Of a DNA stretch of 64,000 nt, positions 3,323 to 16,308 are shown one piece after another (positions within the stretch are counted from its first letter, which is position 1; every line of letters starts with the position of its first letter). The notes under the pieces are model-generated. The model saw only the letters and a list, made by a program, of their open reading frames with translations. It searched no databases and was not told the origin of the DNA. The position numbers and the translations under genes were made by a program. Source of the DNA: Alphaproteobacteria bacterium (GTDB lineage: Bacteria > Pseudomonadota > Alphaproteobacteria > UBA828 > JAPUJA01); assembly GCA_965198325.1 (NCBI GenBank), contig CBDAPE010000019.1:335063-399062 (forward strand), in the 5' to 3' direction.

Positions 3323-3712
3323 ATGAGCAAAACCGCCATGGACCTCGTCGCCGACGCGAACGAGGCAATCGAGACCATCGACGTCGACGACGCCCGCAAG
3401 ATCCACGGCAACGCCGACGTCATCTTCGTCGACGTGCGCGAGCCGCCCGAATTGACCCGCACGGGCACGGTTCCCGGCGCACTTGTCACACCCCGGGGCA
3501 TGCTCGAATTCGCGATCGATCCGTCTCTGCCGACCCACAACGAAGGCTTTTCGGCCGACAAGCTGTTCGTGTTCTTTTGCGGGAGCGGTGGGCGCTCGGC
3601 CCTGGCGGCCAAGACTGCCCAGGATATGGGATTGGAAAAGGTCTGCAGCATGGCCGGCGGCATCCGCGCCTGGATCGAATCCGGCGGCGAGTTGGAGACC
3701 CAGGGCGACTGA
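3323..3712 (+). CDS. single-domain rhodanese-like sulfurtransferase
   Basis: ATG at 3323 preceded by GAAGGGAGA. Rhodanese active-site loop FFCGSGGRS with catalytic Cys. About 130 aa. Confidence 0.8.
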   Translation: MSKTAMDLVADANEAIETIDVDDARKIHGNADVIFVDVREPPELTRTGTVPGALVTPRGMLEFAIDPSLPTHNEGFSADKLFVFFCGSGGRSALAAKTAQDMGLEKVCSMAGGIRAWIESGGELETQGD

Positions 3713-3719
3713 GCGCCCC

Positions 3720-3816
3720 TGGCGGAAGAGAGTGGGAGTCGAACCCACCCGGGACGCGAGCCGCGCCCCACACCGGGTTTGAAGTCCGGGCGCCCCACCG
3801 GGGACGAGCCTCTTCC
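3720..3816 (-). tRNA. selC: tRNA-Sec (selenocysteine tRNA, anticodon TCA)
   Basis: The 97-nt reverse complement has the defining Sec structure: 8-bp acceptor stem (GGAAGAGG/CTCTCTTCC), 6-bp D-stem with 4-nt loop (CGTCCC-CGGT-GGGGCG), anticodon loop CTTCAAA identical to E. coli selC, long variable arm, GGTTCGACTCC T-arm, CCA. It lies immediately downstream of selB. Confidence 0.9.
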
Positions 3817-3847
3817 GATTGCAATTTTAGAATTAACCTCCCGGCAA

Positions 3848-5776
3848 TCAAGCGACGGGGCGGCCGGGCCGGTCAGAGCCTCGATTTCGCAGCCGCCGCA
3901 CCGTATCGAGACGCTCGGTCAAACCGGTACGGTCGAAATACTCCAGCACTTCGATCGCGAGATTTCGACCGATCCCCGCCCGGTCGCGATAGGCGGCGAC
4001 GGTGAAGCGGCGATCCGGGGAGTCCATTGCGAGCGCTTCGGCGGCCGCCGCCAGATCGCGCACATGGTCCACTGAAAGAAACCGGTTTTCGGAGACTCGC
4101 GCGACCAGACCCAGGCTCTCCGCGCGTTGCAGGAACCGCCGGAGGGCCGCAGTCTCGAGGTCGAGGCTTTCGGCCAGTTCGTGGACCACCGGCGCCGCGG
4201 CGCTCGATGCAAGTTGCGGTCGGACGCGCCGCCACAGCGCCTGGTCCGGCCCAGGCAACGTCGGCTTGAAATCGGCCAGGGCGAGCCGGGCACCCATCCG
4301 CCGGATTTTGCCCGTTTCCGCCAAGGCGTCGACGACGCCCTCGATCAGGGGAATCGGCACACGCCGCTCGAGCCTGCGCCGCAAGCGGTCGACCTCGATG
4401 CCGGTTCGTTCCGGCTGTTCCTCGTGGCCACGCCCCAGCGCAGCGAGGATGGCTACCTTCAGGGCACGGCCGTGAGCAGGCGACAGGCCGTAGCGAGACG
4501 CCGCCCGATCGACGTGCACCATATCGGCCGCCCGCCACAGCGCCGCGGCGGCGGCTACCGTCAGGTTGCGCGCGCAGGCGAACCGGTTGAGATCGACCCC
4601 GTCCGGTGTCGCGACGAGCAGCGCGGCGAGAGCATCGGGGGCGCTATCGGCCGCCATGCCGGAAAGTGCCGCGAGACGGGCGTGTTTGGCCCGCCCGCGC
4701 GCGGGCGCGAACGGGTCGATGACCCGGCCGCCGCCGACGGTGTGCCGGGAGGTGCCGTCCCTGAGCACGAAGCGGTCGCCGAACAGTGCACCGATGGGGC
4801 GGTCAAGGACGAGTTGGGCGAGCCCCGTCTCTCCGGGCTCGATCGACTCGCGATCCAGCGGATGAACCCGGGCGGTCACGTGGGCCGCGCCGAGGTAGAG
4901 ATGCACGAGCGTTCTCGACCGGAGCACCCGGCGTTCTCCACCCAGCACCCGGATACATCCGTCGAGGCGCGGCGTCGGCGCGTGAGCGGGTTCGGCCACC
5001 AACCAGTCGCCACGGCCAATGTCCGTCCGGCTCAAGCCGCGCCCCGCAATATTCAGCGCACAGCGCTCGCCGGCTCTCGCCTCGGCCGCCTCCCGGTTGT
5101 TGGCGTGAATCCCCCGCACACGAACCGCAGCGCCCATCGGTGAAAGAACCAGGCTATCGCCAATCTGCGCCGTTCCCGACCAGACTGCGCCGGTTACGAC
5201 CAGCCCTGCGCCATCCAGCGTGAAGCAGCGATCGATCGCGAGGCGAAAATTGCCGCAGGGCGCTCTTGGCGCCAGCGCCGCCGCCTCGCGCTCCAGCCAC
5301 GCCCGAAGGGCCGCGATGCCTTCGCCCTGCGGGCTCGCGACGGGAAACACGGGCGCGCCGGCCAGCGGGCCCTCCCCCAGCAACGCAACCAGGGCGCCCA
5401 TCACCTTGACCCGCCTCGTCTCATCGATGCGGTCGATCTTGGTGAGTGCGACCGCTCCGCCCTCGATCCCGAGCAGCTCGAGAATCGCCAGATGCTCCGC
5501 TGTCTGCGGCATCGGCCCCTCGTCGGCGGCAATCACGAGCAGCGCCCGGTCGATTGCTCCGACCCCGGCCAGCATGGTGGCTATGAAGCGCTCGTGACCC
5601 GGCACGTCGACGAACCCCAGCATGTCCCCGCCCGCCGTCGGCTGGTAGGCAAAGCCCAGGTCGATCGACAGGCCCCGGCGCTTCTCCTCCGCCAGACGGT
5701 CCGTCTCGATCCCGGTCAGCGCGCGGACGAGCGCGGTCTTGCCGTGATCCACGTGCCCTGCCGTCGCGCCGATCAT
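3848..5776 (-). CDS. selB: selenocysteine-specific translation elongation factor SelB
   Basis: 642 aa. N-terminal GTPase (AGHVDHGKTAL, DVPGHERF, TKID), then EF-Tu-like domains and C-terminal winged-helix region. Its start overlaps the selA stop (ATGA). Confidence 0.9.
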   Translation of the reverse strand: MIGATAGHVDHGKTALVRALTGIETDRLAEEKRRGLSIDLGFAYQPTAGGDMLGFVDVPGHERFIATMLAGVGAIDRALLVIAADEGPMPQTAEHLAILELLGIEGGAVALTKIDRIDETRRVKVMGALVALLGEGPLAGAPVFPVASPQGEGIAALRAWLEREAAALAPRAPCGNFRLAIDRCFTLDGAGLVVTGAVWSGTAQIGDSLVLSPMGAAVRVRGIHANNREAAEARAGERCALNIAGRGLSRTDIGRGDWLVAEPAHAPTPRLDGCIRVLGGERRVLRSRTLVHLYLGAAHVTARVHPLDRESIEPGETGLAQLVLDRPIGALFGDRFVLRDGTSRHTVGGGRVIDPFAPARGRAKHARLAALSGMAADSAPDALAALLVATPDGVDLNRFACARNLTVAAAAALWRAADMVHVDRAASRYGLSPAHGRALKVAILAALGRGHEEQPERTGIEVDRLRRRLERRVPIPLIEGVVDALAETGKIRRMGARLALADFKPTLPGPDQALWRRVRPQLASSAAAPVVHELAESLDLETAALRRFLQRAESLGLVARVSENRFLSVDHVRDLAAAAEALAMDSPDRRFTVAAYRDRAGIGRNLAIEVLEYFDRTGLTERLDTVRRLRNRGSDRPGRPVA

Positions 5777-7190
5777 CGTGAGCCTGCGGGCTGCTCCAGG
5801 GCATCGAGCTGGCCGGCCAGCGCGTCCTCGTCGTCGAGGCCCCTGAGGTCGAACCGAAGGGCGCCGTCCTCGATCCGCCCGATCACCGGAACCGGCAAGG
5901 CGCGGAAGGCCGCCGCCAGCCGCTCGAGCGCCTTGCCGCTCCCCCGCCTGCCGGTGTTCGGGCTCAGCGCGAGCGCCACGCTTTCCAACCGGCTCGCGGG
6001 CTGGGCGCCGCTGCCCACTTGGCAGTCGGTTGCGATGATCTCGACCGCCACCCCCTCGAGCCTGGCGGCGAGCAGGGGCCCCAGGCGGCGAGCTACGGCC
6101 TCGATCTCGGACAACGGCCGGGTCATCTGGCGCAAGGCCGGCAGGCGCGCGGCCAGCCGGTCCGGATCGTCGTATAGCCGCAGCACGGCGTCGAGCGCGG
6201 CGAGGCTCAGCTTGTCCAGCCTGAGTGCCCGCTTCATGGGATTGCGGCGGAGTCTGGCGATCAGGTCCCCGCGCCCTACGATCAATCCTGCCTGGGGGCC
6301 GCCCAGCAGCTTGTCGCCGGAAAAGCTCACCAGATCGGCGCCGTGGGAAACCGCCTCGCCCGCCGTGGGTTCATGGGGCAGGCCGTAGCGCGCGAGGTCC
6401 ACGAACGCGCCGCTGCCGAGATCCACGATCAGCAGCAGCCCGTGATCGTGCGCCAGTGCTGCGAGCGACCCTTCGGGCACGGCTGCGGTAAAGCCCCGCA
6501 TCTGGAAATTGCTGAGGTGAACCCGCAGGATCAAGGCCGTGCGCGGCCCGATCGCATCGGCATAACCGGAACCATGCGTGCGGTTGGTGGTGCCACCTCG
6601 ATAAGCCGGCAGCCCGCGCGCGCCATGATGTCGGGAAGGCGGAACGAGCCGCCGATCTCGATCAGTTCGCCCCGCGAAACGATGACCTCCTTGCCCTTCG
6701 CAAGGCTGTTGAGCGCGAGCAGCAGGGCTGCTGCGTTGTTGTTCACCGCGGTCGCGGCCTCGGCCCCGGAAAACCGGCAAAGCCGCTCCTCGATATGGTC
6801 CTCGCGCTCTCCCCGCCGTCCTTTGGCGAGATCGTATTCGAGCGTCGAAGGGCCACGCGCCACCGCCGCGATTGCCGCGATCGCCTCTTCGGGCAGGCTC
6901 GCGCGGCCCAGATTAGTATGGATCAGCGTGCCCGTCAGGTTGAGCACGGGCCGCAGACTCGGCTGGCCGCGCGCGGCAAGGCAGGCGCCGACCCGTTCCC
7001 CGATCGCGCCTTCGCTGGCCTCGGGTGGATCGGCGGCCGCGTCCGCCGCCACCGTATCCCGCCAGTCGGACAGCACCGCGCGCACCGCCATGGTCGTGGC
7101 GTCGCGGCCGTGCGCCTCGATCAGCGCCTGGACGACCGGAAACCGCAGCACCCGGTCGACCGAGGGTATCGCTCGGTGCAATGAACTCAT
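5773..7190 (-). pseudogene. selA: L-seryl-tRNA(Sec) selenium transferase SelA, frame broken by a 1-nt deletion
   Basis: N-terminal part is ORF 6531..7190 (...AGCRLIEV|APPTARM*). C-terminal part is ORF 5773..6780 read one frame back (...GTTNRTHGSGYADAIGPRTALILRVHLSNFQMRGF...). Restoring one G in the GG run at about 6593-6596 (gaggtgGcacc to gaggtgGGcacc) gives the conserved SelA segment RLIEVGTTNRTH in one ~470-aa frame. Confidence 0.8.
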
Positions 7191-7474
7191 GACGCCTGCC
7201 GCCTTACCCCACTCCCGCGTGAACCAATGAAGCTAGCGCAAAATCCGATACTGTGGAAACAACCCGAACCTGCAAACCCGCGCCGGCCGCGGGCGCGACC
7301 AATGGTTATGGCCCGCGGGCAACCGCAGGGTGGGGCCAGCTCCGGGCGTGTGTCATGATCTTCGTTCAGCACCAGCGTGCGAACGGGGCGCAAGGGATAT
7401 AGGAATTTGTCCCTGCCCTCGCTCGCTCACGGAGGGGCCGGGCGCCCATTCGAGAACCAGGGGGAGACGCTGCG

Positions 7475-8464
7475 ATGTCAAAGGCACAGGTGATCCACGA
7501 ACTCGGCCCGCCCGAGGCCATGCGGTGGGAAGAGTGGGCGGTACCCGATCCGGCGACCGGCGAAGTCCGCTTGAGGCACACGGCGGTGGGCGTGAACTTC
7601 GCCGACACCTACCACCGGGGGGGCGTCTCCCATCCGGTGCGGGTGCCGGCCTGCCCGGTGGTGGTCGGGTTTGAAGGGGTCGGGGTCGTCGAGGGCGTCG
7701 GCGACGGTGTGAGCTAATTCAAGCCCGGCGATCGCGTTGCCTATGGCATCCCGCCGCTGGGCAGCTATTCCGAGGTGCGGAACTATCCCGCCGACAAGCT
7801 TCTCCATCTGCCCGACGGCCTTGATGAACGGGTTGTGGCCGCGCTCCTCATGAAGGGGATGACGGCCCATTACCTGTTACACCGGACCTACAAGGTGCAG
7901 CCCGGCGATACCATCCTGGTGCACGCCGCGGCGGGCGGCATGGGACTCATCCTGTGTCAATGGGCCAAGGCGCTCGGCGCCACGATCGTCGGCACGGTCA
8001 GCACCGAGGAAAAGGCCGAGGTCGCCCGCGCAGCGGGATGCGACTATCCGGTCGTGCGCTCCAGGGAGGATTTTGTCGCCAAGGTTCGTGAAGTCACCAA
8101 CGGTGAAGGAGCGGCCGTCGTCTATGAGGCGATTGGCAAGGACACCCTGCAACAATCGCTCGACAGCCTGCGGCTGATGGGCGTCTGTGCGGCCTATGGC
8201 CATGTCTCGGGCCCGCCCGATCCGGTCGACGTGATCCAGGACCTGGGTCGCCACGGCTCACTCTACATTACCCGGCCCGCGATCACGCACTACGTGGCCA
8301 AGCGGTCCGACCTTGAATGGACGGCCCGGGATCTCTTCAAGGCCATGGACGATGGAATTCTGGACGCGAACATCAATTACGAGTACCCGCTAAAGGACGC
8401 CGTCAAAGCCCATCAGGCACTCGAAAGCGGCACGACACTCGGCGCGACGGTTCTCATCCCCTGA
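7475..8464 (+). pseudogene. qor: quinone oxidoreductase (Qor-like, MDR/zinc-ADH superfamily) interrupted by an in-frame TAA
   Basis: ORFs 7475..7717 and 7775..8464 share a frame and together form one Qor-like protein (...GVVEGVGDGVS * FKPGDRVAYG...AAGGMGLILCQWAKALGA...). The TAA at 7715-7717 sits where Qor proteins have a sense codon before the conserved FKPGDRV. Good RBS GGGGGAGA before the ATG at 7475. Confidence 0.75.
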
Positions 8465-8518
8465 CACGGCGCCAAGCCGTCGCGGCGCTCCACAAGACTC
8501 TCGAGAAGCAAGCCTGAG

Positions 8519-8567
8519 CCGCCTGGAGCCGGACGGCACGGCAAGGTTCCGGGTCGGCTCCAGGCGG
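8519..8567. terminator. perfect 13-bp inverted repeat (CCGCCTGGAGCCG ... CGGCTCCAGGCGG) between convergent genes; candidate bidirectional terminator or REP-like hairpin
   Basis: Read directly: 13-bp arms with a 23-nt loop, lying between the qor stop (8464) and the stop of the minus-strand DUF1772 gene (8574). No U-tract, so the terminator call is tentative. Confidence 0.4.
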
Positions 8568-8573
8568 GGTGGG

Positions 8574-9062
8574 TTACGCCAGCGCGCGAACGGCCATGAC
8601 GAGCGATGCGGCCGCCGCCAGCGGCACGACTGTTCGAACGTGATTCCACGCTGTCCAGGCAGACAGGTAGCGGGTCCACAGTTCGGCCCCCGCCCCGTTG
8701 CCCGGTTTCACCGCGGCCAGCTCATTGTTGAGCGGAACGTTGAAGACGATGGTCACCAGGATACAACCGATCAGGTAAAGCAGGCCGCCTGCGACCAGAT
8801 AGATCGACCCGTGCGCTTCCCAGTTGAGGAGTCCCAGCACGCAAAGCGCGATCGAGCCCAGCGCGGTCCCGAAAAAGGCGCCGAAGAACCAGGGGTTGAT
8901 GACGACCACGTTGATCGACTGCATGGCCGCGATTCCCTGTTCGGGTGGCAGGCGGCCGAGAGCGGCCATGACGAAGGTCGAGAAGGCGAAGAAGACACCG
9001 GCGACCAGGGCGGCGCCCAACGCCGTCAAGACGGCGATTGTGCTGATCAGGATGGTGTCCAT
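8574..9062 (-). CDS. DUF1772-like small membrane protein (4 predicted TM helices)
   Basis: 162 aa, very hydrophobic with four ~20-aa apolar segments. The family call is from memory of DUF1772 anthrone-oxygenase-like proteins. Confidence 0.55.
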   Translation of the reverse strand: MDTILISTIAVLTALGAALVAGVFFAFSTFVMAALGRLPPEQGIAAMQSINVVVINPWFFGAFFGTALGSIALCVLGLLNWEAHGSIYLVAGGLLYLIGCILVTIVFNVPLNNELAAVKPGNGAGAELWTRYLSAWTAWNHVRTVVPLAAAASLVMAVRALA

Positions 9063-9901
9063 TACCCGATCCCCCAGACGCCGGTTGCAGCCGCATCCCG
9101 GCCATAGTCGGCGAAGTCCCTCGGCGGACGACCGAGAGCGCGATCTACGCCGTCCGCAACGAACTCGTTGCGACCGTCGAGCACGGTCGTGAAGAGATAC
9201 ATCACAAGCGAAGCGACGTTGGGCGGAACCTCGTGCGCTTCGAGCAGCGACGCGTAATCGTCCGCGGAAATTTCCTGGTAGCGGATCGTCCTGCCGCTTG
9301 CCCCGGCGATCTCGCCGACCGCATCGGCGAACGTCAGCAGGCGGGGTCCGGTCACCTCGTAGAGCTGACCGATGTGTGACGCATCCGTCAGCGCCGCCAC
9401 CACGACATCCGCGATGTCGTCCGCATCGATGAGCGGCTCTTTCGTTCCGCCCGCCGGCAAGGCGACCTCACCGGCAAGCACGGCGTCGAGAAGAAAGCTT
9501 TCGCTGAAATTCTGCGCGAACCAACTCGCCCGCACGATTGTCCAGTCGGCACCGCTATCCTGCAGCGCCCGCTGAGCGCGCTGCGCTTCCTCTTCGCCGC
9601 GCCCCGAGAGCAGCACGATACGCCCGACCCCGGCCGCGAGCGCCGTCTCGGTAAACGACCGGACGGCGTCGACCGCGCCCGGCACCGCCAGATCGGGATA
9701 ATAGGCGATGTAGACCGCGCCCACGCCGTCCAGCGCGGACGCCCAGGTCGCTTTATCGTTCCAGTCGAAGCGCGGCTCGCCCTTACGCGATCCGATCCGC
9801 ACCGCAAACCCGTGATCCCATAATTTCTGCGCCACGCGGCTGCCGGTTTTGCCCGTGCCGCCAAGAACCAGGATCGGCTTCGTCTTTTGCATGTCGGTCA
9901 T
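9062..9901 (-). CDS. NmrA-like NAD(P)-binding protein (atypical SDR)
   Basis: Start at MTDMQ, with GGAGG 5 nt upstream. Rossmann motif LVLGGTGKTGSRV. 279 aa. Divergent from tetR. Confidence 0.75.
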   Translation of the reverse strand: MTDMQKTKPILVLGGTGKTGSRVAQKLWDHGFAVRIGSRKGEPRFDWNDKATWASALDGVGAVYIAYYPDLAVPGAVDAVRSFTETALAAGVGRIVLLSGRGEEEAQRAQRALQDSGADWTIVRASWFAQNFSESFLLDAVLAGEVALPAGGTKEPLIDADDIADVVVAALTDASHIGQLYEVTGPRLLTFADAVGEIAGASGRTIRYQEISADDYASLLEAHEVPPNVASLVMYLFTTVLDGRNEFVADGVDRALGRPPRDFADYGRDAAATGVWGIG

Positions 9902-9945
9902 CGTCGCCTCCAAAGATGATAGGTTTCGTTTCCAATTCATTGTCA

Positions 9946-9962
9946 CTTGACACTATGTCAAG
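9946..9962. promoter_or_regulatory. candidate TetR operator: perfect palindrome CTTGACA-CTA-TGTCAAG overlapping the tetR start codon
   Basis: 7-bp inverted repeat with 3-bp spacer in the NmrA/tetR divergent intergenic region. The tetR ATG (9955) lies inside the palindrome. Confidence 0.55.
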
Positions 9963-10554
9963 CGATAAATCCGACACCCGGCAAAGAATTCTCAACGCCG
10001 CCGTGAATCGGCTCGAAGCGGGCCAGGGCGACGGCGTGCGCATGGCCGATATCGCCAAACAGGCAGGCATCAGCCGCCAGGCGCTCTATCTTCACTTCGC
10101 CACGAGAGCGGAGCTTCTGATCGCCACGACGCACTATGTCGACGAGGCGTTGGGGATTGAAGAGCGCCTTGTGCCGAGCCGCACGGCGCGCTCGGGCGTC
10201 GAGCGCCTCAATGCCTATATCGAGGCCTGGAGCGGCTACATCCCGGAAATCTACGCCATCGCCAAGGTGCTTCTCGCGATGCGCGACACCGACCACGCGG
10301 CGGCGCAAGCCTGGGACGAGCGGATGGGGGCCATGCGCGAAGGCTGCGCGGCAGCAATCGACGCGCTGGAGCGCGACAAGATGCTCTCGCCCGAGCATTC
10401 GCCCGACGAGGCCACGGATATTCTCTGGACGATGCTCTCGGTCCGCAACTGGGAACAGCTCACGATGGGCTGCGACTGGTCCCAAGAGCGCTATATCGAG
10501 ACGCTCAAATCACTGGCACGGCGTATTTTCGTGGCGGAACGCGGGTCCGGCTGA
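9955..10554 (+). CDS. TetR/AcrR family transcriptional regulator
   Basis: N-terminal HTH (TRQRILNAAVNRLEAGQGDGVRMADIAKQAGISRQALYLHF). 199 aa from the ATG at 9955; ORF track 9916..10554. Confidence 0.85.
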   Translation: MSSDKSDTRQRILNAAVNRLEAGQGDGVRMADIAKQAGISRQALYLHFATRAELLIATTHYVDEALGIEERLVPSRTARSGVERLNAYIEAWSGYIPEIYAIAKVLLAMRDTDHAAAQAWDERMGAMREGCAAAIDALERDKMLSPEHSPDEATDILWTMLSVRNWEQLTMGCDWSQERYIETLKSLARRIFVAERGSG

Positions 10555-10649
10555 AGAGCGGGCTGAGCGCGCAAGGCGGATCGATTGATCCCGTCTAGGA
10601 CGCCTGAGCGCTCGGCTCTTATGCTCAACCAACCGGGAGCGGCCTTCCT

Positions 10650-11849
10650 CTAGGCCCAGAACCGGGGCACGATAAGAAACATCTCCACGAGCTGCTTGAG
10701 CGCCTTGTCGTCGCTCTCTTCGCTCAGCGCCTCGAGCGCGAGGATCGCCTTGGCGGCCTTGGTCTCGGCCCAGAACCAGTCGCCGAGATCTTCCATCCCG
10801 GTCATCCCTCGTGAGCCGCTCGCGGTCTCGGTGTAATAGGCCCAGAGGTCTTCGCAGGCGAGCTTGAGCATCATGAGCGGGGGCACGCCCTTGCGCGGGC
10901 TCTTGACCTTGTCGGTCGTCAGCCAGCTGACGATAAAGGGTGCCAGCTCCTCGATCGCCAGCTCGCTCGCCCCGACGGGCGTCCGCCCGCGCCGGGCGAC
11001 CGCCGCGTCGTACTCGGGCCGGATTTCGGCAATCTCCGCCTGGATTTCGGCCAGCAGCCTTGCCGGGTCCGCCCGGTCTTCGGGCTTCGAGACCAGTTCG
11101 TTCGGCAGGGCATGGGTCATGCGCCGGCCGCGTATGGGAACGACCACGGGATAGTCGGCCAGAACCGGCCCCACGGGTGCGTCGAACAGAGCGAAGGCGG
11201 CGCGGATGACGCCTTTCTGAAAGTCGGGATCGTTCGGCTTGCCGAACGGGCGGCCCATGGGCATGTCGAGCCACAGCGCACGGGGCGCCCCGATCGCGGC
11301 GGCATGCTCGCGGACGAAACAGACCAGCGTCGTTGCCAGCCCCTCTTTCTCGAAGAAATATGCAAGCCCGCACACGGTGCGCGTGCAGAACGGTCAGACG
11401 GGGGCGAGCAGAACCGTGTTGACGCCCTCGGCCTTCATGCGGCTCGCGACGTCGTGCACGCTCTTTTCATACTCCAGCGGGTCGGTCGCGCCCATGAAGG
11501 AATAATGGGTCTCGGCCACCGCGCCGATCTCACCGTCCGCCGCCATCTCCTTCAGGCGGTCCACCGGCAGGATCGCATTGAGGTCCTGCTACCACGCGGT
11601 GCGGTCGTAATCCACCGCGACATGAGTCATCACGAGGTTCTTGTCGTCGGCGTCGAACGCCCGGTAATCCCGAGCGGACCAGCTAAACGGCTTGTCGCCC
11701 CGTTTGCTCAACCCCGCCGAGGAGACCACCGCCACCTTGCGCTCACGTGCAGCCACGGGCGCCGTCCAGGGCCGGTCCGCAAAATCCGGCATTTCGAGCT
11801 CCTCGAACATCTCGCGTGGCAGCTTCGGCATGTCATGCATCAGAACCAT
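10650..11849 (-). CDS. candidate selenoprotein (family unresolved, possibly GrdB/PrdB-like reductase B); one frame carries an in-frame TGA (Sec?) at 11394-11396 and an in-frame TAG at 11589-11591
   Basis: ATG at 11849 with GAGGAG 6 nt upstream. Frame reads 86 aa, TAG, 64 aa (...MKAEGVNTVLLAPV), TGA, then PFCTRTVCGLAYFFEKEG... for 247 aa (the ORF-track piece 10650..11375 starts at an internal GTG). U-x-x-C redox motif; GC hairpin 6-26 nt after the TGA. selABC is 4 kb away. Confidence 0.45.
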
Positions 11850-11922
11850 CGCTCGCTCCTCATCCTCAAGCCGTCGAGCGGCGCCAGCTTAGTAAAGCTC
11901 CGCCCTGGCGGACACAGCCTCT

Positions 11923-13200
11923 TTACCCCGGCGGATCATTTTGCCGTGATCGGGCCTTTGCCGGGATCAGGAACCACAGAAAGGCGATCACCTGCAGCCC
12001 CAGGGCGGCGGCGAATGCCGCCCGAAAACCCGCCGGGTCGTAGCCGCCTTCGGGGCCGAGGGGAAAGGCGTTGATAATGACGCCCATGCCGTACTGAACG
12101 ACGAACACGCCCGCGAAGACGACCAGGTTCAGGCTGGTGTTGGCCCGGCCCGCAAACTCGATCGGGAAATAGCGCGACAGATGGGCGTAGGTCAGCACCG
12201 ACATATGGCCAACCAGCCCGAACAGGATCCATGGCCAGATACCGGCAGGATCGAGTTCGAAGATGACGACCAACTGGGCCCCGAAAAAGAGCACGGTGCT
12301 CACACCCAGAACCTTGGCCAGGCCGATGCCTACGCGGGCCAGCCGGTCGGTGACCAGACCGCCCAGCGCGACCCCAATGCCCATGGCCGCCGTATTCGCC
12401 AGCAGATAGACCGCCAGCGTATTCCGATCGAGCCCGCCGACGTCCTTCATCCACGGCCCCGCCCACAGGCCCTGGATCGACATCCCCCCGGCGACGCCGG
12501 TTACGGCAAGCGGCGTATAGCGCCAGAATTCCCGGTCGCCGAAAATTCGGCGCAGATCCCGGATCTGGCGTGCAAAATTCAGCGGTGTGGTCGTGACCGG
12601 TTTTTCCGGCACGACAAAAAAGATCGCCAGCGACACCACGACGGTCGCGATCGCGCATCCCAAAAAGACGCCGCGCCAATCGGTCACCTGCAGGAGCGCT
12701 TCGACTGGTGCCGTCGCCGTCATCGCGCCGAGTGCGCCCATTCCCAGAAAGCAGCCGTTCGCCAGCGGCCAGCGCTCGCGGGGAAACCAGATGGTGATCG
12801 CCTTGAGCCCCGACATCAGGCCGCCCGAGACGCCGAAGCCGATCAACGCGCGACCGATCAGCAACGGTGTCTGGCTCTCGCCCAGCGAGAAAATCAGCGC
12901 GCCGAGCGCCGCGACGAGTAGTTGAGCCGACTGCACCCGGCGCGGCCCGAAGCGATCGAGCATGACGCCGAGGGGAAGCTGATTGGCGGTGAACGTGAGG
13001 AAAAACACCGCCGTCAACAGGCCGAGGCCGGCGGCGCTCAGGCCGAGCTCCGCGACCAGCTGGGGCGCGATGATCGCATTGATCTGGCGATAGAGGTCCG
13101 AGAAGAAAAATCCTGCGGCGAAGGGCAGAAAAACGAGAATCACGCCCAGCGCGAGGCTGGTGCCCGGTTCTCTGGCCGGGCTCGATTGGGGAGCACTCAC
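11923..13200 (-). CDS. MFS transporter
   Basis: 425 aa, about 12 hydrophobic helices, GTG start. Sits immediately upstream of the candidate selenoprotein on the same strand. Confidence 0.8.
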   Translation of the reverse strand: MSAPQSSPAREPGTSLALGVILVFLPFAAGFFFSDLYRQINAIIAPQLVAELGLSAAGLGLLTAVFFLTFTANQLPLGVMLDRFGPRRVQSAQLLVAALGALIFSLGESQTPLLIGRALIGFGVSGGLMSGLKAITIWFPRERWPLANGCFLGMGALGAMTATAPVEALLQVTDWRGVFLGCAIATVVVSLAIFFVVPEKPVTTTPLNFARQIRDLRRIFGDREFWRYTPLAVTGVAGGMSIQGLWAGPWMKDVGGLDRNTLAVYLLANTAAMGIGVALGGLVTDRLARVGIGLAKVLGVSTVLFFGAQLVVIFELDPAGIWPWILFGLVGHMSVLTYAHLSRYFPIEFAGRANTSLNLVVFAGVFVVQYGMGVIINAFPLGPEGGYDPAGFRAAFAAALGLQVIAFLWFLIPAKARSRQNDPPG

Positions 13201-14867: not shown

Positions 14868-16040
14868 ATGCCCCTCCTCGCCCTCGTTGCGGCCGTCCTG
14901 TGGAATCTGTTCATCGGCCTGTTCTATTGCTGGAGCGTCTTCATCGTGCCGCTGGAAGAGGCGCTCGACGTTTCACGTGCGAGCGTGAGCGCGGTCTTTT
15001 CGGTGGGCATCGCGTGCTACGCCGGCGGCATGTTCCTCTCGCCCCACCTGCTCGCCCGCGTCCCCCTGCCCCGGCTTGCCGCAGCGCTCGGACTCGGCGC
15101 AGCGCTCGGGCTCCTGATCGCCGGACTGGGGGCCAGCCTCGGCGCGCTGATCGCGGGCTTCGGCATTGTCTTCGGGCTGACGGCGGGCGCAGGCTATGCG
15201 CTGGCGCTGCAGGCAGCGAGCGGCGAGCTGCCGGTCAGGCGCAGCTTCGCCATCAGCATCACGGTTACCGCGTTCGCTACGGCGGCGCTGCTCTGGCCCA
15301 AGCCGCTCAGCCTGCTGATCGCCGCTCTGGGGCCGTTTACGACCCTCATCCTCTACGCCGGGGCGATGGCCGGAATCGGGCTCGTCATCGCACTCCTGCT
15401 TCGGCTCTCGGGCGCGCGGGCGCCGGCCGCGGACGACGCCGAGGCGACACGGATCTTGCACAACTTCCTGACCGACCGGCCGCGCGTCTTCGTGCTGATC
15501 TGGCTCAACTTCGTCTTCCTGGCGATGGGTGGCTTGACGGCGTTGAGCCACGCCGCCGGCATCGCCGGGGCCTTCGGCGTTCCCCCGGATCAGGTCTATT
15601 TCGCCCCGATGGTGACGAGCGTCGGTTATGTCGCCGCCTGCCTGTGCGCGGGCCCCATGACCGACTGGCTCACGGGCCGGCGCGTGCTGATGGGCCTCTC
15701 GGGCGTCATGATGGCGGCTCTGCTGGCGCTGTTCCTGGCCCCCTCGGCCTGGCTCAGCCTGCTTGTCCTGGCCCTCGTGGGTGCCAGCTTCGGCGCGACG
15801 GCTGCGGTTTATCCGGTCACCGTCGCGAGCTATTACAGCATCTCGGAAATGGGCCGCATCTACGGCCGGATTACGCTCGCCTACGGCACCGGCGGCATCG
15901 CCGCGCCCCTCATGGCCGGTGCACTCTACGACTGGGAAGGCGGTTACCACTGGTCGCTGCTGATCGCGGCCGGGTTCGCCGCCGCCGGAATCGCTGCAAG
16001 TTCGGCGCTGCCGCAGCCGGCCCGAACAACCGCCGGATGA
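14868..16040 (+). CDS. MFS transporter
   Basis: 390 aa, Ala/Leu/Gly-rich with about 12 TM segments. Its 3' end lies inside the 85-bp direct repeat. Confidence 0.8.
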   Translation: MPLLALVAAVLWNLFIGLFYCWSVFIVPLEEALDVSRASVSAVFSVGIACYAGGMFLSPHLLARVPLPRLAAALGLGAALGLLIAGLGASLGALIAGFGIVFGLTAGAGYALALQAASGELPVRRSFAISITVTAFATAALLWPKPLSLLIAALGPFTTLILYAGAMAGIGLVIALLLRLSGARAPAADDAEATRILHNFLTDRPRVFVLIWLNFVFLAMGGLTALSHAAGIAGAFGVPPDQVYFAPMVTSVGYVAACLCAGPMTDWLTGRRVLMGLSGVMMAALLALFLAPSAWLSLLVLALVGASFGATAAVYPVTVASYYSISEMGRIYGRITLAYGTGGIAAPLMAGALYDWEGGYHWSLLIAAGFAAAGIAASSALPQPARTTAG

Positions 16041-16054
16041 TTATCTACCCGCTA
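15970..16054. repeat. 85-bp perfect direct repeat, copy 1 (last 71 nt of the MFS CDS plus 14 nt of 3' flank)
   Basis: Identical to 16146..16230: ccgggttcgccgccgccggaatcgctgcaagttcggcgctgccgcagccggcccgaacaaccgccggatgattatctacccgcta. Both copies are followed by an A-run plus GG. Confidence 0.9.
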
Positions 16055-16145
16055 AAAAGGGGGTTGAACCTTTGCCCCGGCGGTTATCCCAAATCACTAC
16101 CCAGATAGTCGACCTGGCTGATTCTGCGCAAAATTCCCTCAGCAC

Positions 16146-16230
16146 CCGGGTTCGCCGCCGCCGGAATCGCTGCAAGTTCGGCGCTGCCGCAGCCGGCCCG
16201 AACAACCGCCGGATGATTATCTACCCGCTA
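16146..16230. repeat. 85-bp perfect direct repeat, copy 2 (non-coding; 91 bp of unique sequence separates the copies)
   Basis: Exact duplicate of 15970..16054 at 176-bp periodicity. The second copy has no upstream start codon in the MFS frame. Confidence 0.9.
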
Positions 16231-16308
16231 TAAAAAAGGCCGCGTTCAAATCGGACGAGTCACCGGATATCCAGGCCTTCGAAGCCGCCCGGGGCCGCCC
16301 GGAGCCGC

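Follow-up and report, generated by a model that had tools for sequence, protein, structure and literature searches.

The 64-kb window analyzed here (a stretch of 64,000 nucleotides, ~65% GC) comes from an uncultured marine alphaproteobacterium, whose lineage we designate W, and carries three genes for the use of selenocysteine (Sec), namely, selA, selB, and selC, together with a nearby gene for a selenoprotein resembling PrdB and GrdB. Our analysis suggests that W has probably only just stopped using Sec, having acquired genuine and recent knock-out mutations in selA and in the neighboring selenoprotein gene. A third broken gene, the NADPH:quinone oxidoreductase gene qor, belongs to an accessory block that sits between these two. 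An earlier, sequence-only reading of the window had reported a selA frameshift, a qor nonsense codon, and an extra TAG in the selenoprotein candidate, and we found all three at the places that it gave. The view of the W genome available to us covers ~74 kb in total. The Sec-related features of the window are the following:

3720 to 3816, minus strand: selC, encoding tRNA-Sec with anticodon TCA, intact (ARAGORN; Rfam RF01852).
3848 to 5776, minus strand: selB, encoding the Sec-specific elongation factor (642 amino acids), intact; TIGR00475 matched over positions 1 to 580 of 581, E = 1.5e-116.
5773 to 7190, minus strand: selA pseudogene; 1-bp deletion in a G run, leaving GG at 6593 to 6594, and premature stop at 6531 to 6533.
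10650 to 11849, minus strand: PrdB/GrdB-like selenoprotein gene, conceptual product of 399 amino acids; premature TAG at 11589 to 11591 (codon 87), Sec-UGA at 11394 to 11396 (codon 152).
11367 to 11389, minus strand: hairpin resembling a Sec insertion sequence (SECIS), with a 10-bp stem and a triloop, starting 5 nucleotides past the UGA; ViennaRNA, -14.5 kcal/mol.

The deletion breaks selA into an open reading frame (ORF) of 219 amino acids (6531 to 7190) and a C-terminal part in the next frame. The TIGR00474 profile is matched at positions 2 to 193 by the first ORF and at positions 194 to 448 by the second. The context of the lesion, GAGGTGG^CACC, now reads GAG GTG GCA CC, where Glu-Val-Gly-Thr-Thr-Asn-Arg-Thr-His is expected. 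Inserting one G yields a SelA of 472 amino acids, which matches PF03841 over positions 1 to 366 of 367 (498 bits) and retains the FSGDK motif, where we presume the lysine that binds pyridoxal phosphate (PLP) to lie. The break falls at approximately residue 199, inside the PLP domain. Beyond the frameshift, no further decay of W selA was detected. Conservation of 95% or more across 120 SelA homologues defines 166 columns, and at these W SelA departs from the usual residue 10 times, compared with 14 to 15 times for the SelAs of its sister lineages. An intact W-like SelA was absent among 5.8 billion proteins, the best full-length match being 66% identical, and intact selA alleles were found only in lineages that are ~70 to 83% identical to W at the DNA level. 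As a separate observation, the SelAs of the whole clade formed by W and these relatives have in common five atypical residues at positions where 120 other SelAs agree to at least 95%; examples are a Ser-to-Cys and a Cys-to-Gly change (alignment columns 423 and 497).

The relatives used for comparison are labeled S1, S2, and S3, and W is an outgroup to S1 and S2:

S1: L084 to L087 (metagenome-assembled genome [MAG] Alphaproteobacteria CBN3_323.43), ~70 to 85% DNA identity to W; selA intact (486 amino acids); PrdB-like gene represented by a 151-amino-acid N-terminal part, up to the TGA; qor gone, with another reductase gene in its place.
S2: L089 (ERZ26167216; a 1.74-Mb contig), ~70 to 85% identical to W in DNA; selA frameshifted; selB missing 44 amino acids through a 132-bp deletion; PrdB-like gene open; qor truncated at its 5' end, with only the C-terminal 194 codons left.
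S3: L092, 92% identical to S2; selA intact (475 amino acids); accessory block absent.

These sister genomes, which the sequence-only reading had named as a comparison for the sel genes, also preserve the ancestral states of both Sec-related lesions. At the selA site, each of the three sisters has a GGG run, whereas W has GG; at the site of the TAG, S1 and S2 have CAG (Gln). This indicates that the amber stop arose by a C-to-T transition and the frameshift by a 1-bp deletion.

In the PrdB-like gene, the TAG (...DRTAW-TAG-QDLN...) stands 65 codons upstream of the Sec-UGA. The context of the latter, ...LLAPV-TGA-PFCTRTVCG..., gives the motif PV-U-PFC, which is of the U-x-x-C type. The encoded protein matches PF07355 over residues 11 to 149 (E = 4.7e-14), with the TAG falling within this domain, and TIGR04483 with E = 9e-13 at a score under the curated cut-off; its C-terminal 247 amino acids have no Pfam match. 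The SECIS-like hairpin also forms in S1 and S2, C-to-U changes keeping the pairing as G-U. Seven distant PrdB-like homologues lie within 10 kb of selB among 80 loci that were fetched with SelB. A TGA occupies the same position in all seven (motif PV-U-PxCT), as it does in S1 and S2, and Gln stands at the site of the TAG lesion in five of them. Furthermore, selA, selB, and selC adjoin a TGA-containing PrdB-like gene in W and in all three relatives. The conserved TGA and the linkage in distant homologues support the notion that the W gene is a genuine selenoprotein gene and that its family is repeatedly linked to selABC. Both the UGA and the hairpin are present in the W gene, yet its frame is shut upstream of them.

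We found no Pfam or NCBIfam matches to the partners PrdA, GrdA, and GrdE among the genes of the window or the called genes of the sister loci, and a PDB sequence search with the PrdB-like protein gave no match. As far as its domains and neighbors tell, the W gene is a PrdB-like homologue and not part of a canonical glycine/D-proline reductase complex.

The description of selB and selC as pristine was borne out. W SelB follows TIGR00475 from end to end and keeps all domains in an alignment with 16 homologues. It is also free of acceleration, its identity to 14 outgroup SelBs being 0.51 to 0.55, compared with 0.47 to 0.52 for the SelBs of S1 and S2; the closest match in a scan of genome contigs with the window SelB was 55% identical, and an exact look-up of that protein found no record. 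The selC gene scored 73 bits over the full RF01852 model (gathering score, 47), and relative to the sisters one pair in the D stem of its tRNA is changed in a compensatory manner (C-G/U-A). The ATG of selB overlaps the stop codon of selA (ATGA). No selD was seen in the window, whose sole AIRS-domain gene is purL. Next to selC in W, S1, and S2 lies an intact rhodanese-domain gene (3323 to 3712, plus strand; 129 amino acids; PF00581), whose product could serve the Sec system as a partner in selenium or sulfur transfer.

Three other assemblies of W were reached using a C-terminal fragment of the PrdB-like protein as the query: L081 (ERZ25072076), L082 (ERZ25072526, a 93.5-kb contig), and L083 (the Logan assembly of ERR13605531). 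They are 99.85 to 99.96% identical to the window. All three match the window exactly in the 30-mers that surround the selA deletion, the TAA in qor, the TAG, and the Sec-UGA, and in their records the gene callers split the same genes identically. The split gene fragments of the window also stand verbatim on a 719-kb NCBI contig, presumably that of the source genome. Judged by single-nucleotide polymorphisms (SNPs), L082 and L083 share one haplotype, L081 has another, and the window has a third. Neither allele around the TAG turned up when JGI metagenome contigs were scanned, and a search of the literature for the sample accessions gave no result.

The sequence-only reading had offered a low-quality stretch of assembly as its alternative, and this did not survive the comparison. 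A localized sequencing or assembly error might be suspected from the selA lesion, which is an indel in a short homopolymer, and from L081 and L082, which are probably long-read contigs and carry scattered 1-bp indels of their own. Those indels, however, are private to each assembly and located elsewhere, with none at a lesion site; two of the three lesions are substitutions; and all three appear in four consensus sequences of at least two haplotypes, including L083, which shows zero indels against the window over 7.5 kb. A local error is thus very improbable. The comparison confirmed that the three lesions are genuine and present in every available W sequence, and error is effectively excluded.

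We also considered whether the lesions might be bypassed in the cell, through programmed -1 frameshifting in selA, through read-through or suppression of UAG or UAA, or through a working SelA made of two pieces. This was considered only because the Sec genes are themselves recoded; no support for it was found, and it is extremely improbable. The sequence GAG GTG GCA CCA is without a slippery heptamer, the SelA break lies within the PLP fold, and the sisters encode uninterrupted forms. Among the 56 genes of the window, 30 end in TGA, 16 in TAG, and 10 in TAA; TAG and TAA thus serve as ordinary stops for 26 of them, and the stop codons of the window are not recoded, all three being in ordinary use. 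Only three tRNA genes, for Leu(TAA), SeC, and Glu(CTC), occur in the window, and no suppressor tRNA was seen.

Genuine and unbypassed, the two Sec-related lesions lend themselves to the following interpretation. The 1-bp deletion truncates SelA within its PLP domain, such that Ser-tRNA(Sec) would no longer be converted to Sec-tRNA(Sec), and the C-to-T transition turns a conserved Gln codon of the PrdB-like gene into an amber stop ahead of the Sec codon. Should the PrdB-like protein be the sole or principal selenoprotein of W, each mutation would render the other neutral, and the two genes would then be expected to decay together. Early termination in selA may in addition uncouple or reduce the translation of selB via the ATGA overlap. 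The ochre stop in qor would represent a separate event in a dispensable block made up of TetR, NmrA-like, DUF1772, and qor genes.

The inactivation of selA and of the PrdB-like gene looks recent, given the one lesion per broken gene, the intact state of selB and tRNA-Sec, and the lack of detected extra decay in selA and selB. In comparisons involving W, the ratio of nonsynonymous to synonymous substitution rates (dN/dS) of selA and selB did not rise above the general trend. Neither dN/dS nor three-point branch lengths are of use for dating, as W is an outgroup and dS is ~1, near saturation. The claim that the Sec trait of W is in early decay fits selA and the PrdB-like gene, with their single lesions, the ancestral states in the sisters, and an intact selB and selC; it probably does not extend to qor. 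Taken together, these comparisons support Sec decay for this locus.

The genes of the accessory block between selA and the PrdB-like gene are the following:

7475 to 8464, plus strand: qor pseudogene (NADPH:quinone oxidoreductase), conceptual product of 329 amino acids; in-frame TAA at 7715 to 7717 (codon 81).
8574 to 9062, minus strand: DUF1772/anthrone-oxygenase-like gene, intact (PF08592).
9062 to 9901, minus strand: NmrA-like NAD(P)-binding gene, intact in W (Pfam scan).
9955 to 10554, plus strand: TetR-family regulator gene, intact (PF00440).

The NF008024 profile is matched in qor at positions 2 to 77 before the TAA and 80 to 327 after it. Both the ADH_N and ADH_zinc_N domains are present in the conceptual Qor, the frame of which is closed at codon 81. 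This protein is colinear with 109 homologues of exactly 329 amino acids, to which it is 83 to 89% identical. At columns that are invariant in these homologues, W Qor has W55V, R260H, and M271T, which suggests relaxed constraint. The ancestral codon of the TAA is not fixable because codon 81 varies among the homologues (D, G, E, A, and others); S2 is without that part of the gene. The family itself is strikingly conserved, with 329-amino-acid proteins from Alpha-, Beta-, and Gammaproteobacteria being 83 to 89% identical, which suggests either strong constraint or frequent transfer.

As listed above, sisters with Sec genes of their own have lost qor or its block in whole or in part (deletion in S1, 5' truncation in S2, absence in S3), and for this reason the qor stop probably lies outside the selenium story. 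It is probably a separate event, unrelated to selenium, in a dispensable block that appears to be decaying independently in several lineages. We also observed that the NmrA-like gene of S1 (L084, 11377 to 12191; also L085 and L086) is frameshifted close to codon 245 and has lost seven codons. Both changes are identical in the three assemblies, which were probably built from short reads, to judge by their contig names (k141).

The sequence-only reading had seen no comparable damage elsewhere, and inside the window this held. Pfam scans matched essentially every other large ORF over its full length and revealed no split genes, and one apparent gene gap proved to hold a second enolase-superfamily gene. 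(Gene calling by third-position GC content [GC3] and codon usage was dropped in favor of Pfam scans, since antisense frames contaminate it in DNA of 65% GC.) Just to the left of the window, the statement failed. In the flank ~1 to 6 kb beyond the edge (L090, 11791 to 15812, and L091), W carries two insertion sequence (IS) transposase genes, of which one shows an IS5-style split, and a Rieske ring-hydroxylating dioxygenase paralogue with a TGG-to-TGA change and a frameshift; these lie ~5 to 6 kb from the window. The IS genes and the Rieske pseudogene are common to two haplotypes.

The lesions are clustered to a degree that chance would seldom produce. Three random sites in 64 kb would all fall within 5.0 kb with p = 0.017. 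Three of the eight genes in the island are broken, versus none of ~20 non-housekeeping genes elsewhere in the window (Fisher p = 0.017, with a rough classification of the genes). The IS elements and the pseudogene beside the window imply that this clustering partly reflects a dispensable, decay-tolerant region. It also partly reflects where dispensable genes sit, as housekeeping genes (suf, pur, cysS, gltX, nadE, leuA, and rpsD) abound in the right-hand 50 kb.

Such clustering would also be expected if dispensable genes were decaying across the region or the genome under weak purifying selection and active IS elements. The Sec genes would then have been hit merely by lying in an accessory, recombining island, and W might go on using Sec via genes located elsewhere. 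The damage in the left flank fits this account, as does the degradation of qor and the NmrA-like gene in sisters that keep their Sec genes; among strains, the ratio of nonsynonymous to synonymous changes is high in all genes. The island also has a mosaic character. From 7900 to 13100, that is, from the C terminus of qor to a major facilitator superfamily (MFS) gene, the window is 85 to 94% identical to S2 (L089), versus 62 to 77% in the flanking selAB and suf genes, which points to exchange or recombination of the island between lineages. On the other hand, none of the ~20 non-housekeeping genes in the remaining 52 kb is broken, and two of the three lesions fall in 4.6 kb of Sec-related coding DNA, ~8% of the coding DNA of the window (binomial p ~0.02, a hand calculation). 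We regard regional decay as unlikely to be the better account, though its chance is not negligible, and it overlaps with recent Sec loss instead of excluding it.

Two further observations concern the structure of this region. The N-terminal part of the PrdB-like gene groups with S2, and in the C-terminal part S1 and S2 are closer to each other than to W. At 15970 to 16234, the window has a 176-bp insertion that is missing from L081 and L082; 87 bp of it are unique, and the other 89 bp directly repeat the 3'-terminal part of the MFS gene (14868 to 16040). The insertion may be a strain polymorphism, the footprint of an element that integrated and was excised, or an assembly artefact.

Several points weigh against a recent loss of Sec use in W and temper our confidence in it. 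Beyond the ~74 kb covered, the genome may hold another copy of selA, a selD gene, or further UGA-containing genes that are intact. Within the lineage, nonsynonymous and synonymous SNPs number 8:5 in the broken genes and 10:6 in the intact genes; the ratio is the same and gives no independent sign of relaxed selection. The IS elements and the further pseudogene just outside the window mean that some of the clustering may be regional and not specific to selenium. Finally, L082 and L083 share a haplotype and perhaps reads, and the four assemblies may have a platform in common, which makes a platform-specific systematic miscall formally possible. With these points taken into account, we still favor a recent loss of Sec decoding at this locus.

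The relatives suggest a broader variant of the same idea, in which the PrdB-like/selABC island recombines as a unit and is undergoing parallel dismantling in several sisters within a single clade of marine alphaproteobacteria. In W, selA is frameshifted and the client gene has an amber stop; in S2, selA is frameshifted and SelB has a 44-residue deletion, with the client open; S1 and S3 are intact. Parallel dismantling is quite unlikely on this evidence. If true, it would make the clade a natural series for reading the order of the steps in Sec loss. In S2 (L089, 15708 to 18897), the selA frameshift falls within a hypervariable linker, at a G5/C3 run, and the residues missing from SelB come right after domain III. 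The S2 contig has 15x coverage and, as a guess from its name, is probably a long-read contig. The damage to selA and selB in S2 could be either parallel decay or long-read assembly error.

Recent loss of Sec through a frameshift in one sel gene is already known, and W is a new example of it, differing in which gene is broken and in the client. In Yersinia pestis CO92/Mediaevalis, selB is frameshifted, selA, selC, and selD are intact, and the UGA is kept in fdoG, a pattern interpreted to mean that Sec decoding was lost very recently (Romero et al. 2005, PMC1273633). As in Y. pestis, W has a single frameshift in one sel gene, the other sel genes seen here are intact, and the client keeps its UGA. 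Unlike in Y. pestis, it is selA and not selB that is broken, and the client is a PrdB/GrdB-like protein with a premature stop of its own and not FdoG. Moreover, W is uncultured and was compared with an intact sister lineage at ~80% DNA identity, not with a sister strain.

Clusters of selA, selB, and selC with one neighboring selenoprotein gene (fdhA) have been described in Alpha- and Betaproteobacteria and Pseudomonadales, and this arrangement is thought to favor transfer or loss as a unit (Zhang et al. 2006, PMC1794560). The Sec island of W is likewise compact, with one nearby client and a mosaic of identity between lineages. It differs in that the client is a PrdB-like UxxC protein and not a formate dehydrogenase, and in that an accessory block is inserted between the client and selA. 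PrdB-like UXXC selenoproteins rank third in abundance among the selenoprotein families of the Sargasso Sea (Zhang et al. 2005, PMC1088965). The W protein resembles them in its PF07355/TIGR04483-like N-terminal domain, its U-x-x-C Sec motif, and its marine aerobic host; it differs in its conceptual length of 399 amino acids with a Pfam-less C-terminal region of 247 amino acids and in the inactivation of its gene. Helicobacter pylori is reported to retain an orphan selA, with the rest of the Sec system gone (Cravedi et al. 2015, PMC4607533). On that account, W and H. pylori both have a Sec system left incomplete after loss, but H. pylori keeps SelA, whereas in W SelA is broken and SelB and tRNA-Sec remain.

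The cluster of stops in this MAG reflects biology and not poor assembly. W provides a clean example, recurring in multiple assemblies, of the first steps of Sec loss in a free-living marine lineage, and it leaves the existing picture of how such loss proceeds unchanged. It also carries a warning for annotation, in that selB and selC, the usual signatures of the Sec trait, can outlive the trait itself. Cases such as this one help explain why the distribution of Sec is so patchy.

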